The notes below the pieces were generated by a model. The model was given only the letters and a program-made list of their open reading frames with translations. It was not told the DNA's origin and searched no databases. A stretch of DNA of 64,000 nt from a virus (lineage: Duplodnaviria > Caudoviricetes): IMG/VR virus record IMGVR_UViG_3300032212_000003, positions 11,633-75,632 of that record; one strand, given 5' to 3'. The position numbers were made by a program, and so were the translations under genes. Of the stretch, positions 45,353 to 64,000 are shown piece by piece. How positions within the stretch are numbered: position 1 is the stretch's first letter; every line of letters starts with the position of its first letter.

Positions 45353-45393
45353 GAAATTCTCCTAAAGTGTTTCGGACAAGTCCGAAAGTATTT

Positions 45394-45675
45394 TTAAGTT
45401 CTGTCTAAATAGTTTTCTCTTTTGTACTCGTACTCTTGCTGACTAAGTATCTCAGCTTTTTCTTTTTCAGAGTGGAATCCAAATAACTTGTAGTGAGTCG
45501 GCCCTATGGATCTAACAGGTTTTAAAGCTTTCAGTAATTCAAAGTAGTCCTCTCTTTTAACTCTTAAAACTGACAATGCTGTAAGCTCGTCCCCCGATCT
45601 GAAATAGGTATGCATGACAACTTCCTTGTTGTCACTGTCTGCTATTACAGAGTCAACTTGGAGTCCTGATAACAT
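45394..45675 (-). CDS. Hypothetical protein
   Basis: ORF overlapping the end of the dNMP kinase gene. Confidence 0.6.
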   Translation of the reverse strand: MLSGLQVDSVIADSDNKEVVMHTYFRSGDELTALSVLRVKREDYFELLKALKPVRSIGPTHYKLFGFHSEKEKAEILSQQEYEYKRENYLDRT

Positions 45676-46226
45676 AAGTCACCTGCCTTTCTTAAAGTTA
45701 TGTCTTCTACCTTATCGTACAAGTCTGTAAGGCTGCCGTCATTTATTATGGTGTCAGATATAAATTCTTTACTTACACCGGACTCACTTACATGATATGA
45801 CTTGCTTATTTTTTCATGTCCTGGCCTAATTATTTTTATAATTGTACCACCTGCCATAAGTATCATCTTAGCTTCGTTATCGAATCTAACATCAGTAAAC
45901 ACTACGCTCTTATTGGCAAGTCTTATACAGTTTCTAGCTCTTTTCTTAGCCAGCTTGGTCCAAATTTCACTATCTACTACATCTCGGCCCCATTCAGTTC
46001 CTAGAGTTTGAAGAAGTTCTCTGTAGGTTAGCTCCAAATCAGGTGGACAGGTGCCTTTTCTTTTGCCTTCCTCTATCACCGATACAGGGACGTTCAACAT
46101 TGCAGATAGTCCTTCGTATATAGGCTTAGCAAACTTTTCTATTTTGAATCTATATTTATGAAATAGTATAGTTGCCGCTTCGTCTTTACCACAGCCGGCA
46201 TCGCCGGTGAATCCAATTAGTTTCAT
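45645..46226 (-). CDS. Deoxynucleoside monophosphate kinase (T4 gp1-like)
   Basis: GFTGDAGCGKD, RELLQTLGTEWGR, TDVRFDNE, HVSE. Confidence 0.93.
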   Translation of the reverse strand: MKLIGFTGDAGCGKDEAATILFHKYRFKIEKFAKPIYEGLSAMLNVPVSVIEEGKRKGTCPPDLELTYRELLQTLGTEWGRDVVDSEIWTKLAKKRARNCIRLANKSVVFTDVRFDNEAKMILMAGGTIIKIIRPGHEKISKSYHVSESGVSKEFISDTIINDGSLTDLYDKVEDITLRKAGDLCYQDSKLTL

Positions 46227-46294
46227 CTTAGCTTTCCTGTTAATTTAAATTATAAGTTGTCTTTAAGTCTTTTGTACTAGTTTACTGTATCTTC

Positions 46295-46558
46295 TTATTT
46301 CTCCAGTAGGTTTGGAAACTGGTCTAACAAATTTGGAAACTTGTTAATTAAGGTTTCAGTATGTACAGAACGGTAAGTCCAGCTGTCATGATCTGGATGC
46401 ATACTTTTAGTCCTTAGTTGTATAAAGTGATGATTAAACTTTCCGGTCTTTGTTGCGCTACATCCGTAGTATATGTAATCGTCTTTGCTTCTATCGGTTA
46501 CTATTGTGCCGATAGGGCATAGGTCTTCAGTACTTGTATAGTCGGCTACTTCAGTCAT
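46295..46558 (-). CDS. Hypothetical protein
   Basis: Coupled to the upstream gene. Confidence 0.65.
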   Translation of the reverse strand: MTEVADYTSTEDLCPIGTIVTDRSKDDYIYYGCSATKTGKFNHHFIQLRTKSMHPDHDSWTYRSVHTETLINKFPNLLDQFPNLLEK

Positions 46559-47262
46559 AATAATGCCTCCTGAGTTGACTTATTAAATTCTTCAATTTTC
46601 CACTTAGTTCCGTGTACAGTTGTTGCCACATCTCTTTTTGTCCCATCGCACATCTTACATAACTTGCATGTTATATCTTCGTTCTTCTCTGCGGCGCAAA
46701 CCATTTCCCCGGCTTCAAGTCCTGATCCAGATTGGCGGATTCTAAATGTTTTCCACCCTCTTGCTTTGGCAACTTTAGCATGCGCTACTGACTCAACTGA
46801 GGCCATGCAATAGTTCTTAAGTTCTTCATTGCAATAATTCCAAGCGTGAGTATATCCGGTATGGTTACGGGCACCTTTAGATAGATCCTTCCAAACTTGA
46901 ACCGGTACAGCTGCCGGGTCACCGTAACTTCCAAAGCGTACAGCTTTACCTTTGCAAAGTTCTGTTAAATCGTCAGGCACCTTCATATCCTTTCGCTTAT
47001 AGGCATGCCACACCGCCGTAGGTGCCTGATGTACCAAAACATAACAAGCGTTGCCACGCAGCTCGCAGTCTCCGCAAATGGATGTATCCTGGCCGCTCTT
47101 TAAAGCCTCGGTTGGGCTTATATCTTTTCGTAATATGTAGGTCTGAATGATGGGACCAGTTTTTCTGTTGGTGCTTGGTTTTTTAAATCCGGTAGCTAAA
47201 ACAATAATAGGCTCCCCATCTAGTATAGAGGGGCCGTCGTAAACTAAACACATGCTAGTCAT
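46555..47262 (-). CDS. Cys-rich conserved phage protein, possibly Fe-S binding
   Basis: NRKTGPIIQTYIL, ICGDC..R..CY, VRFGSYGDP, GYTHAW, C-terminal C..TCKLCKMC. Confidence 0.7.
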   Translation of the reverse strand: MTSMCLVYDGPSILDGEPIIVLATGFKKPSTNRKTGPIIQTYILRKDISPTEALKSGQDTSICGDCELRGNACYVLVHQAPTAVWHAYKRKDMKVPDDLTELCKGKAVRFGSYGDPAAVPVQVWKDLSKGARNHTGYTHAWNYCNEELKNYCMASVESVAHAKVAKARGWKTFRIRQSGSGLEAGEMVCAAEKNEDITCKLCKMCDGTKRDVATTVHGTKWKIEEFNKSTQEALL

Positions 47263-47300
47263 TGGTAAATTCTCCTGAAATATTCGGACAAGTCCGAAAG

Positions 47301-47561
47301 TTATTTTGCCTTTAATTTAAACTGGTGATGACGAGTGTTGTAAGTATATTCTATTTTTGATTTGTCAGAAAATACTCCGGTAAATTTTACACACTTACCT
47401 GCCTTATTGTAATTACTCTTCACTTCTTCTGGATTTTCTCCTAAGAGTTCTTTGAATCTTATAGTATTTCCTGAGGCCTCTGTACCATACCCATCTTTCA
47501 TTGATAGGTGTACAAATTTTCTTTCCAGTATTGCTTTTCTTAATTGTTGGGCTTTAGTCAT
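47301..47561 (-). CDS. Hypothetical protein
   Basis: RBS GGAGA. Confidence 0.7.
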   Translation of the reverse strand: MTKAQQLRKAILERKFVHLSMKDGYGTEASGNTIRFKELLGENPEEVKSNYNKAGKCVKFTGVFSDKSKIEYTYNTRHHQFKLKAK

Positions 47562-47579
47562 GATATTTTCTCCAGTTGT

Positions 47580-47846
47580 TTAAATACAATTACGTTCACG
47601 AAGTTCTTCTTCTTCATACTCTCCGGTGTAATAGTTACACCACTTACATCCTTTCCTGTGCGGGTGGTGTATTCCATCACAGTTGCAGGTTGTTCTTTTT
47701 ATATAATCTTTGCGTTCCTTATCTACACAATGAATTCCACTTCCACAGGCTTTGCATTTTGGCTCCTTTACATACTCCTCCTTTCTTTTACGTAAGGTTA
47801 CTCTCATTCTGCAATTATCGCTATTGCACCTGTATCTGTTGGGCAT
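47580..47846 (-). CDS. Small Cys/His-rich zinc-binding protein
   Basis: RC....CR, CKACG, CNCDG.HHPHRKGCKWC. Confidence 0.75.
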   Translation of the reverse strand: MPNRYRCNSDNCRMRVTLRKRKEEYVKEPKCKACGSGIHCVDKERKDYIKRTTCNCDGIHHPHRKGCKWCNYYTGEYEEEELRERNCI

Positions 47847-47856
47847 TCTGTATCCT

Positions 47857-62710: not shown

Positions 62711-62738
62711 AATAAAAAACCGGCTCGGGGCCGGTTTT
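62711..62738 (-). terminator. Intrinsic terminator
   Basis: AAAACCGGC-CCCGA-GCCGGTTTT followed by TTATT on the minus strand. Confidence 0.85.
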
Positions 62739-62762
62739 GGAATTTTGGGACATGTCCAAATA

Positions 62763-62966
62763 TTAAAAGTCAGTTACAAAATTGCACGACTCTTGACATT
62801 CCGTCATTCGGGTTGGCTTTGGCATTTTCTGAACGGCTATCTGGTTTAGTATTTTTGTGTAGGCTTCGTGCTTAGTAGCGCCTTCACAGAAAAATTTCTG
62901 GCTGTGATTATTGGGAAACTCAAAAACGAAGGTAAATAAAATTTTCGGGGTGTTTGTATTTTCCAT
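62763..62966 (-). CDS. Small early protein
   Basis: RBS GAGG; stop is followed by a palindrome copy and a terminator. Confidence 0.7.
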   Translation of the reverse strand: MENTNTPKILFTFVFEFPNNHSQKFFCEGATKHEAYTKILNQIAVQKMPKPTRMTECQESCNFVTDF

Positions 62967-62992
62967 GATATAGGCCTCAGTGAGTGAGAAGG

Positions 62993-63012
62993 GGGGCCGC
63001 GGTGGCGGCCCC
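62993..63012 (-). other. GC-rich hairpin between the two most upstream early genes
   Basis: GGGGCCGC-N4-GCGGCCCC, 7 nt after the stop; no U-tract. Confidence 0.6.
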
Positions 63013-63019
63013 AGTTAGA

Positions 63020-63670
63020 TTATGCAGCTTTTGATTGCTTATCCATTGCGTTGACGGTATCCGCTAAAAACGCCTGTAGGGCTTTAAGTTCAGCCTTCGC
63101 GCCCACTTCTGATAAGTCATGAATCAAAGCGGTGATTTTATCGAAGGTTTGAGCGGTATCCATATTGCCAGAGTCTGACACGTTGCTGGATTCATCGCCG
63201 CCGCCGTTACCCTGTACGCTATCAATCTGCTGAGGTGCGGGGATAGGGCCGGTAGACAGTATGCCGTCTTTAATATTCGCCTTCAAATCAACCTGAGCAT
63301 ATGCACGGGTGACCGCTTTGCGGGCCGCGTCCCAGTTCTTACACTCAGCTTTAGATTTTGTTGCATTGTATTCTTTGCTGATTGCCTCTTTCAAGGACTT
63401 GCCTGTAAGGTCACCGGCTTTTGTTAAACGATTGGTGATTCGATCTTTTAAAGCTTTGTTAGATAAATCATTTTTGATGCGGTGAGTTTCTTTTTCGTTA
63501 AAGAATACAGTAATAATACCCTGTACGCTTTCGCTGTCATCGGCTTTGATGAATGTATTGAACCCGCTGGCGATAGTATTGCCATTTTTTACGCTTGAAC
63601 GAATAGCGGTAATGATAGTTTTTTGAGCGGGGCTGATTGTTGGCTGTGTTGTAGTTTCTTGCTTAGTCAT
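63020..63670 (-). CDS. Most upstream early protein (216 aa), function unknown
   Basis: Start moved to the ATG at 63670 (RBS-like GAAGGT); helical, Lys/Ala-rich. Confidence 0.75.
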   Translation of the reverse strand: MTKQETTTQPTISPAQKTIITAIRSSVKNGNTIASGFNTFIKADDSESVQGIITVFFNEKETHRIKNDLSNKALKDRITNRLTKAGDLTGKSLKEAISKEYNATKSKAECKNWDAARKAVTRAYAQVDLKANIKDGILSTGPIPAPQQIDSVQGNGGGDESSNVSDSGNMDTAQTFDKITALIHDLSEVGAKAELKALQAFLADTVNAMDKQSKAA

Positions 63671-63731
63671 GATATCTCTACCTTCTGAAAATGTGGGCCG
63701 CTTCGATGGTGCGCCCCTTAACCATGGATCT

Positions 63732-63760
63732 ATTAGACCACAGATAAAATAATAATGCAA
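63732..63760 (-). promoter_or_regulatory. Putative extended -10 sigma70 promoter with an UP element
   Basis: TTGCAT-17 nt-TCTAAT preceded by TGTG; ~50 bp nearly pure A/T upstream; same GGTA-TTG context as the 61717 promoter. Confidence 0.55.
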
Positions 63761-64000
63761 TACCTAAATAATAAAATAATTAAAATAATTTAAATAATAT
63801 AAAAATTAAATGTTTCGGACATGTCCGAACGAAGGAGGGCGGCACGGGGGCGGCGGTGTGTATCAAGTTCACAGGGGAGAGGGGGCGGCGGTGGCCGGGG
63901 CGGCAGGTGATAAGGTGTGGTTATTATATGCATAAGTAAATGTTATTGATGAGGAGGCCGCGCCCCTAGTATGCCTTTTTGTTTGCAAAATACGAGACAG

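Follow-up and report, generated by a model that had tools for sequence, protein, structure and literature searches.

Dispersed palindromes ahead of early gene blocks in a phage genome from a microbial mat: predicted operator-type sites for a dimeric DNA-binding protein

The early region and its palindromes

The window analyzed here is a stretch of 64,000 nucleotides, bases 11633-75632 of the 75,632-bp IMG/VR virus record IMGVR_UViG_3300032212_000003 (Duplodnaviria; Caudoviricetes; genome labelled G000), and the subject of this study is a short palindrome, GGAC-N2/3-GTCC, that recurs among the early genes of this phage. The sole sequencing run containing the window is a DNA run from a microbial-mat metagenome, and the 75,632-bp record ends in a 127-bp terminal repeat. 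Rightward structural genes extend from the left end (terminase, portal, capsid, a 1144-aa tape measure and a 2136-aa tail protein), and everything at 19.3-63.8 kb of the window is transcribed leftward, starting from the right end. The early region (45.4-63.8 kb) holds about 50 small leftward genes, and beyond them lies a replication/recombination module encoding a C5 methyltransferase, a primase-helicase, an SNF2 helicase, PolA, a ligase and SbcCD. Among named phages, the closest relatives are siphophages of Vibrio, for instance SHOU24 and 51E28.1 (PolA 38%, portal 44% and capsid 38% identical); megablast against phage records gave no matches.

An earlier note, made from the letters of the window, had counted at least 17 copies of the palindrome, 16 between 45.4 and 63.8 kb and one at 27200. 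Our genome-wide scan recovered all of these and raised the count to 19 exact matches in the window, compared to a mean of 0.78 and a maximum of 4 in 100 dinucleotide shuffles; the first 11.6 kb of the genome, outside the window, contained zero copies. Sixteen of the 19 lie at 45374-63826 in the leftward early region, and the others are at 27203, 36681 and 24361, the last two having been missed by the earlier note. In the direction of the genes, the full element reads (TAA)CTTTC-GGAC-WW(W)-GTCC-GAAA, with a half-site of about TTTCGGAC, and is followed by the usual phage ribosome-binding site (RBS; ATTTnAGGAGAA) and a start codon. Since the ATTTnAGGAGAA context also stands ahead of palindrome-free genes, the RBS is not part of the element. 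The spacer of 2 or 3 nt that had been described was found in 13 copies (2 nt, always W-W) and 6 copies (3 nt), respectively, and its contents in G000 are WW, WWW, ACG and GCG. The copies and the promoter beside one of them are given below, together with their counterparts in the related contig G001, which is described in the next section; ORF stands for open reading frame and 5'UTR for 5' untranslated region.

63813..63830, minus strand: copy 1, TTCGGACATGTCCGAAA; the outermost copy; the GC-rich genome end adjoins it, and downstream lies the AT-rich leader that belongs to the first early gene (63020-63670); its orthologue at G001 30279 is the variant GGACTTATCC
62744..62761, minus strand: copy 2, TTTGGACATGTCCCAAA; 5 nt past the stop of a 67-aa gene, with an intrinsic terminator next (62734-62714); at its counterpart, G001 29265, the motif is followed by a terminator as well
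61689..61717, minus strand: consensus promoter, TTGACA-17-TATAAT; ends 44 nt upstream of copy 3
61631..61648, minus strand: copy 3, TTTCGGACTTGTCCAAAA; part of the 5'UTR that follows the consensus promoter; a 69-aa gene starts 22 nt downstream
61381..61399, minus strand: copy 4, CTTCGGACAATGTCCGAAC; 3-nt spacer, downstream flank conserved with G001 27580
60464..60481, minus strand: copy 5; within an ORF-free, hairpin-rich region of ~650 nt, matching G001 27143, with 'tagataggactaac' downstream in common
59374..59391, minus strand: copy 6; the upstream 60-aa ORF crosses the core and ends at the TAA of GTCC-TAA
57453..57470, minus strand: copy 7, TTTGGGACATGTCCGAGA; ATG 13 nt downstream
57153..57171, minus strand: copy 8; 3-nt spacer, with a flank A that completes the TAG stop of the upstream ORF; the RBS is immediately next (GTCCgaaAGGAG), then a lipoprotein-like 141-aa gene
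55877..55894, minus strand: copy 9, TTTAGGACATGTCCTAAA; the sole G000 copy with a compensated flank pair (A-T), preceded by a terminator-like hairpin (55941-55920) and heading a RadC-like gene
55166..55183, minus strand: copy 10; core overlapped by the TAG stop of the RadC-like gene, heading a 119+131-aa gene pair that is missing from G001
54336..54354, minus strand: copy 11; 3-nt spacer
52500..52518, minus strand: copy 12; 3-nt spacer, adjoining a strong terminator hairpin (15-bp stem, 52518-52549), ATG 20 nt on
51169..51186, minus strand: copy 13; directly behind a tRNA and tRNA-like cluster, and a tRNA is followed by the motif at G001 19770 too
49631..49649, minus strand: copy 14; 3-nt spacer (ACG)
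47282..47299, minus strand: copy 15; heads a DUF7227-like 235-aa gene, orthologous position G001 17554
45370..45387, minus strand: copy 16, perfect TTTCGGACTTGTCCGAAA; heads the C5 DNA methyltransferase gene
36677..36694, minus strand: coding copy; a perfect 18-bp palindrome encoding SDMSE inside a 117-aa ORF (36543-36896)
27199..27217, minus strand: outlying copy; GCG spacer, in the gap between ligase-like and SbcD-like genes
24361..24370, no strand assigned: core-only match inside an SbcC-like ORF; with a flank score of 3/8, probably a chance occurrence

The placement of the copies agreed largely with the earlier note, which had put most of them shortly after a stop codon and before an RBS. 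In 11 early copies the core begins no more than 10 nt past the upstream stop codon, and 10 copies have a start codon and its RBS 14-35 nt further on (the usual start distance being 13-35 nt, and the palindrome-to-RBS distance 0-12 nt); at 55179, 57167 and 59375 a stop codon overlaps or follows the core, as had been reported. The view that the motif marks gene junctions as such needed narrowing, since only about 16 of the roughly 50 early junctions carry it; the copies head blocks of 1-6 genes. About 80% of the copies lie within 60 nt upstream of a start. When SHOU24, 51E28.1, G000 and G001 were compared, the start codon was 10-58 nt downstream of most copies, while the distance to the upstream stop ranged from -13 to >300 nt, and in long intergenic gaps the motif stood beside the start codon (10-43 nt) in 12 of 14 cases. 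In all four phages the motif is associated with starts and not with stops. Of the 19 copies, 11 have an unpaired first position outside the core, and the 10 of 17 given earlier was reproduced. Every A at the left flank position creates an in-frame TAG for the upstream ORF, and a T at the right flank position creates either a TAA or the RBS TAAGGAGG; part of this apparently uncompensated flank variation thus has a coding cause.

Other features of the early region were seen during this analysis. Two stretches of about 630-650 nt inside it are free of ORFs, 58742-59374 and 60150-60797 (minus strand). The latter contains a palindrome copy and the 'tagataggactaac' that it has in common with G001, and may encode a non-coding RNA. 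A second repeated word, GGGGCCGCG or its complement, occurs 8 times at 59797-63012, in the first 4 kb of the early region and mostly in ORF-free stretches; it forms a palindrome, GGGGCCGCggtgGCGGCCCC, once (62993-63012), and G+C-rich runs resembling it are found at the genome ends. The element at 51190-51318 (minus strand), next to tRNA-Met and tRNA-Arg genes and with a palindrome copy directly after it, gave a partial Rfam tRNA match (51204-51259, 31 bits), was not called by ARAGORN, and looks like a tRNA-like RNA with an oversized insert.

Relatives with the same palindrome and a sister palindrome in Vibrio phages

A pattern scan of IMG/VR returned one contig with many matches, G001 (78,952 bp), which is syntenic with the window genome at 50-85% protein identity. 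It carries 16 exact copies, compared to 1.05 in shuffles, and two GGACTTATCC variants in an identical layout. About 13 motif positions correspond between the two genomes, including the outermost copy, the copy after the first two genes (followed by a terminator), those in the ORF-free region, behind the tRNA genes and ahead of the DUF7227-like gene, and the coding copies; the copy 44 nt behind the genome's sole perfect TTGACA-17-TATAAT promoter is present in both. The coding copy, whose nearest start is 122 nt away, is conserved at the nucleotide level: 25 nt in a row are identical at G001 3905, whereas the flanking codons differ about every 4-5 nt. The outlying copy of G001 (75179) occupies a different junction of the replication/recombination module. 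A distant fragment, G002 (50% G+C), whose capsid protein is 42-45% identical and whose early genes are unrecognizable, and its sibling G004 retain the identical TTTCGGACATGTCCGAAA, G002 with 3 copies and 1 variant. The motif is conserved in all three relatives, and the phages of this clade with the same 18-mer span 39%, 43% and 50% G+C. Protein scans of IMG/VR and a metagenome pattern scan for further relatives returned only G001. At about 4530-4660 of G002, after the first early gene and just before the second palindrome copy, there is also a (GCGTGC)n-like microsatellite of about 90 bp.

In the cultured relatives, palindromes were counted blindly, with no preset motif. The Vibrio phages were found to have a palindrome of their own, TTTGGTCT-S-AGACCAAA, with 12 exact copies in SHOU24 compared to 0.01 in shuffles, 32 in 51E28.1 compared to 0.03, and 27-31 in the first 45 kb of each of K45, K120 and K404. 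The code of the Vibrio clade is GGTCT-S-AGACC, versus GGAC-WW-GTCC in the clade of G000, and the layout is that of the window: nearly all copies are in the early/middle region, intergenic, on the gene strand and just before an RBS, with a few beside terminators and about a fifth within ORFs. The centre base is C, G, A or T, and one copy overlaps the -35 of a promoter-like site before a gene annotated as helix-turn-helix (HTH; SHOU24 15305, 51E28.1 30550). A clade-specific sequence in a constant layout argues for a trans-acting factor that co-evolves with its sites. Pseudomonas phage PMBT3, an equally distant PolA relative, had no enriched palindrome, so the feature is not universal in the wider group.

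Two further observations concern 51E28.1. Degenerate half-copies (ggtctgagac..., tttggttc) at 2440-2480, 2830-2870 and 3350-3390, 15-30 nt upstream of several intact palindromes, look like decayed or tandem sites. At 11528-11615 a promoter-like TTGAGC-17-TATAAT leads directly into a strong hairpin that has a T-run, after which come the palindrome and an RBS, an arrangement that may be a leader attenuator ahead of the palindrome.

Predicted protein sites on duplex DNA and the alternatives

Variation in the arms, flanks and centre was compared among copies. In the five Vibrio-phage genomes, the 14 arm positions were perfect in 128 copies, with single mismatches in 18, double mismatches in 6 and compensated changes in 0; in the clade of G000, 18 copies had perfect arms, 18 had a single change and 2 were compensated. 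Permutation tests in both clades found the left and right flanks of one copy no more complementary than flanks of different copies. Asymmetric centres had no orientation bias with respect to transcription (TT:AA 4:3 in G000 and 4:4 in G001), and the C:G of about 18:12 in 51E28.1 was taken as no bias either. Arm mismatches that would give a G-U on the mRNA strand were no commoner than those that would give an A-C, and the least conserved part in both clades was the centre, which would correspond to a loop. Since the arms are invariant and the centre varies, with neither covariation nor orientation bias, this points to a two-fold symmetric protein reading half-sites on duplex DNA. A variable centre between invariant half-sites is the pattern of dimer operators and the opposite of that of protein-bound RNA hairpins, and the same argument has been used for the Cluster O repeats of mycobacteriophages and against hairpins for the ESAS repeats, both discussed below. 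The pattern is better accounted for by a DNA-binding protein that is dimeric and sequence-specific than by an RNA hairpin, a promoter or a terminator, and this is the best supported reading of the sequences.

From the sites, their symmetry, their placement and their conservation, all read directly from the genomes, we infer that a protein binds, that it does so on DNA and not on RNA, and that it represses or times transcription. The repeats are predicted to be operator-type sites at which one sequence-specific protein docks on double-stranded DNA in the form of a symmetric dimer, and this protein would most likely be encoded by the phage and co-evolve with its site. We give this reading a little less than an even chance; it is also the one of the earlier note's proposals, operators of a phage regulator, that fared best, given the invariant half-sites, the variable centre, the lack of compensation or orientation bias and the palindromes that each clade has of its own. 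Since the sites head blocks of early or middle genes, within short untranslated gaps, and one of them comes closely after the main host-type promoter, one factor could act at once on the early programme as a whole. Its most plausible action would be to block or time transcription through each block, in the manner of a stoperator or of KorB.

Several observations weigh against such operators. Spacers of 2 nt (13 copies) and 3 nt (6 copies) occur in one genome, a change too large for a rigid dimer; the six 3-nt copies all lie between genes, and five match the flank consensus at 6-7 of 8 positions, the copy at 27203 being an outlier at 5/8. The left flank (TAAC) is conserved asymmetrically, and a position next to the start codon in long gaps (10-43 nt in 12 of 14) is not required by a pure roadblock. 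The variant copy of G002 is doubly compensated (TTTCCGAC..GTCGGAAA) and sits at the tip of a longer terminator-like hairpin. In addition, six-frame searches for ParB_N, HTH_3 and GntR gave no match, and neither did Pfam and PHROGs searches with the conserved small early proteins.

The main rival, which we consider unlikely, places the function at the RNA level: the palindrome would be a hairpin transcribed in the 5'UTR or in intercistronic RNA, acting as a processing site, a 5'/3' stabilizer, an insulator of the RBS or the target of a translational regulator. Several of the points just listed would be readily accommodated by it, as the 2/3-nt spacer variation is easy for a loop, the variant of G002 is compensated within a longer hairpin, and the motif is start-proximal in long gaps. 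All real copies are in transcribed, gene-oriented gaps near a strong RBS; in both G000 and G001 one copy belongs to a 5'UTR, with the only consensus promoter 44 nt upstream, and two promoter-like sites of 51E28.1 are 49 and 54 nt upstream of a copy. When the copies were folded as RNA, the energies ranged from -1.6 to -10 kcal/mol, most of them from -6 to -10. However, about a quarter of the copies reached only -1.6 to -3.9 kcal/mol or did not form in their context, no family in Rfam matched the element, and a conserved copy lies in the middle of an ORF. Arms and flanks do not covary, the stem is invariant while the loop varies, and neither the would-be G-U and A-C mismatches nor the centres favour one strand. 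Thus, of the earlier proposal of RNA processing sites, transcription, start-proximity and the 5'UTR copy stand in its support, whereas the weak folding of a quarter of the copies and the poor conservation of the loop equivalent do not agree with it.

The relation of the palindromes to promoters and terminators was considered as well. The early region has one strong sigma-70 site, upstream of a copy and not at the beginning of the region but about 2 kb into it. Upstream of this consensus promoter, behind an extremely AT-rich leader, come the first two genes (63020-63670 and 62763-62966); the promoter of G001, at 28204, is likewise about 2 kb into the early region. Terminators were found directly upstream of copies (52504, 55881, G001 22539, 51E28.1 11605 and 50505) and directly downstream of others (62748, G001 29265, SHOU24 30056 and 26527, 51E28.1 46416). 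The element itself was rejected as an intrinsic terminator, which needs a G+C-rich stem and a U-tract, since its stem has T's before and A's after on both strands. An N4-type hairpin promoter was likewise rejected, as there was no ORF of suitable size and no match to PF00940 in a search run without a positive control.

A phage-specific promoter, in which TAACTT (as a -10-like sequence) or the palindrome itself would restart transcription at each block through a phage-modified or phage-encoded RNA polymerase, is in our judgment highly improbable. A terminator-then-restart layout like that of the T4-type PeSL elements is seen at several copies in G000, G001 and 51E28.1, and about 12 of the 16 early copies have a TAnnnT hexamer that finishes 1-3 nt ahead of the core, but this hexamer is unconserved in the Vibrio clade and no conserved -35 stands upstream. 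The palindrome stands 0-12 nt ahead of the RBS, too close for a sigma-70 -35/-10 pair. Six-frame searches found no sigma-70 region 2 and no T7-type RNA polymerase (PF00940; the polymerase search had no positive control). Moreover, a palindrome gives no direction, several copies immediately precede a terminator, and one sits downstream of a perfect promoter.

The earlier note had also suggested recombination points for shuffling gene cassettes, comparable in role to the PeSLs. Here the shared ~18-40 bp would serve as the crossover for early-gene cassettes, in a PeSL-like or integron-like manner. Homology breakpoints were mapped among 51E28.1, K45, K120 and K404, which are 93-95% identical where aligned. 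Per genome, 8-11 of 35-38 breakpoints were <=30 nt from a motif, compared to about 1.5 for random positions, and the ends of high-scoring segment pairs stacked at the motif edges (+7..+13 and -7..-17). Since breakpoints favour gene junctions anyway, junctions are a fairer null than random positions, and against motif-free junctions the enrichment was not significant (38/83 versus 45/132, odds ratio 1.6, p = 0.11, with counts that are not independent). Since the motif is identical everywhere, alignments run through to its edge wherever the actual crossover lay. In the comparison of G000 with G001, four additional genes or gene pairs stand immediately downstream of positionally conserved copies, and one 119+131-aa pair is bracketed by two copies; these arrangements are no more than suggestive of exchange. 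Recombination would, however, leave the palindromic symmetry and the strict invariance unexplained, and the authors who described the Cluster O repeats saw no link to insertions and deletions either (PMC4351075). As the main function we regard a recombination joint as improbable, and the comparison with PeSLs finds weak support, with breakpoints that abut the motif on one side, and the non-significant enrichment and the absence of a sigma-70 promoter on the other. Exchange at the sites may be a by-product rather than the function, the ~18-40 bp of identity at junctions acting secondarily as shared joints for exchanging accessory genes. An array of integron cassettes does not fit: the element is 18 bp, near-perfect and start-proximal, whereas integrons have a site-specific tyrosine recombinase and an imperfect 57-141-bp attC at the 3' end of each cassette, and the family searches run found no integrase or dedicated recombinase (no search with an integrase-specific model was made).

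To return to the predicted dimeric regulator, candidates for the binder were sought within the phage. The earlier note had named three, 63020-63670, 42458-43144 and the N-domain of the methyltransferase. The 228-aa protein of 42458-43144 is an HNH homing-type endonuclease and was dropped. The product of the first early gene (63020-63670) was without relatives in Pfam, PHROG or PDB and did not resemble the first gene of G002. Residues 1-190 of the C5 methyltransferase (43940-45352, minus strand) have structural neighbours in the Atlas that include small SymE/AbrB-type phage proteins and also the N-domains of other plasmid and phage cytosine methyltransferases, which is a lead only. The methyltransferase N-domain and the first early gene product remain candidates. 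The only family-wide protein without an assigned function, of 267 aa (35456-36259, minus strand), was set aside, since its structure model indicates a single-strand DNA-binding protein like gp32 of T4/RB69: the OB core (residues 82-267) had a pLDDT of about 90 and Foldseek probabilities of 0.97-0.99 to 1gpc and 2a1k, and the 81-residue disordered tail is N-terminal, whereas that of gp32 is C-terminal. The SHOU24 proteins annotated as 'DNA binding protein', 'transcriptional regulator' and 'HTH' gave no Pfam match and no profile match in G000 or G001. A Spo11/TopoVI-A-like gene (22500-23414) was rejected as a cutter of the palindrome, because it has no orthologue in G001, which keeps the motif.

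A host regulator could also be mimicked, in that the palindrome would copy the operator of a host transcription factor and the early genes would answer a host signal. Apart from one additional central base, the Vibrio version is similar to the GntR/HutC dre operator TGGTCTAGACCA, a likeness that is a lead only. Yet the same 18-mer occurs in phages of 39%, 43% and 50% G+C with probably different hosts, and a scan of 185,579 species genomes gave scattered single matches, with no multi-copy genome among the 120 stretches listed. We consider mimicry the least probable of the explanations weighed here. The occurrence of one 18-mer at 39-50% G+C, together with a sequence that changes with the phage clade, favours a phage-encoded over a host factor.

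Known dispersed repeats and what the palindromes may mean

The earlier note had called the system undescribed, which was overstated: neither the palindrome of the G000 clade nor that of the Vibrio clade was found described in the papers searched, but dyad and start-associated repeats are known in mycobacteriophages (PMC4351075, PMC3203893). The palindromes belong to a described kind of dispersed phage repeat, that of the Cluster O dyads and the Cluster K start-associated repeats (SAS and ESAS), both without an explained mechanism. Mycobacteriophages of Cluster O (the Corndog group) carry 34 copies of a 17-bp dyad, TGTTCGG-NNN-CCGAACA, for which a dimeric DNA binder with a role other than control of initiation was predicted, and predicted only (PMC4351075). 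Both have dozens of copies with invariant arms (7 bp in Cluster O) around a variable, mostly A/T centre without orientation bias, both are spread over non-structural operons and are densest where small non-structural genes form a leftward operon, copies within ORFs make up about a fifth to a third, the phage appears lytic and there is no clear link to insertions and deletions. In contrast to our palindromes, the Cluster O repeats are explicitly not tied to translation starts; the sequence and the host phylum differ, and the spacer length varies only here (2 or 3).

The SAS/ESAS of Cluster K (PMC3203893), whose function was still without a test in 2025 (PMC12699233), are likewise placed right before the translation starts of some non-structural genes. 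In the ESAS, an inverted repeat, departures are uncompensated, the consensus varies by subcluster and positions are conserved in relatives. However, the SAS is an asymmetric 13-mer that contains the RBS, and the ESAS arms are 17 bp, imperfect and 4-13 bp apart, whereas the element described here is a single compact palindrome of 18 bp, near-perfect and accompanied by the general RBS of the phage. Like the stoperators of Cluster A (L5 gp71; PMC4351075 and general knowledge), the palindromes are tens of short sites in small intergenic gaps, and the stoperator mechanism, in which a bound protein halts the elongating polymerase, is the one we judge most likely to apply. Stoperators are, on the other hand, asymmetric 13-mers that share the orientation of transcription and are the target of a temperate phage's lysogeny repressor, whereas the sites here are symmetric and almost confined to the early region; as for a cognate repressor of that kind, none of HTH_3, GntR and ParB_N was found, and many ORFs are still uncharacterized.

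The PeSLs of T4-type phages are defined by a sigma-70 -35/-10 promoter between a stem-loop of varying sequence and the Shine-Dalgarno sequence (PMC2839356, PMC4122927). The palindromes share with them a repeated signal among small accessory early genes in a plastic region that ends in a Shine-Dalgarno sequence and a start codon, often with terminator hairpins adjacent and with breakpoints between relatives nearby, but they leave no room for a promoter and their sequence is invariant. The breakpoints abut the motifs without significant enrichment over other junctions.

KorB, a ParB-family protein, acts at the OB operators of IncP plasmids, a 13-bp palindrome (TTTAGC-S-GCTAAA) present in 12 copies. 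These share with the present sites a palindrome of the form TTT...S...AAA, scattered over a mobile genome near and far from promoters, for one global regulator. The KorB replicon is a plasmid and not a phage, and no ParB_N domain was found here.

Dispersed conserved palindromes and start-associated repeats in the early regions of phages have been described since 2011-2015 without a tested mechanism. What is new here is the same design in phages of Gram-negative marine bacteria. Since the cultured Vibrio phages SHOU24 (grown on V. parahaemolyticus), 51E28.1 (on V. crassostreae) and the K-series carry 12-32 perfect copies of the sister element, the mechanism is directly testable. Tentatively, and with clearly less confidence than we place in the operator reading itself, we propose that this marine siphophage family (G000, G001 and G002, SHOU24 and 51E28.1) has a private, co-evolving pair of regulator and operator, in which one dimeric protein would serve 16-38 identical palindromes heading early and middle gene blocks and the sites would also be landing pads for new genes. 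Accessory genes inserted immediately downstream would then come under control at once. If true, this would provide a mechanism for a whole class of dispersed phage palindromes, including the Cluster O repeats and the ESAS, and, should one factor gate most of the early genes, lytic development would have a new global switch, which would also be a source of orthogonal regulator/operator parts.

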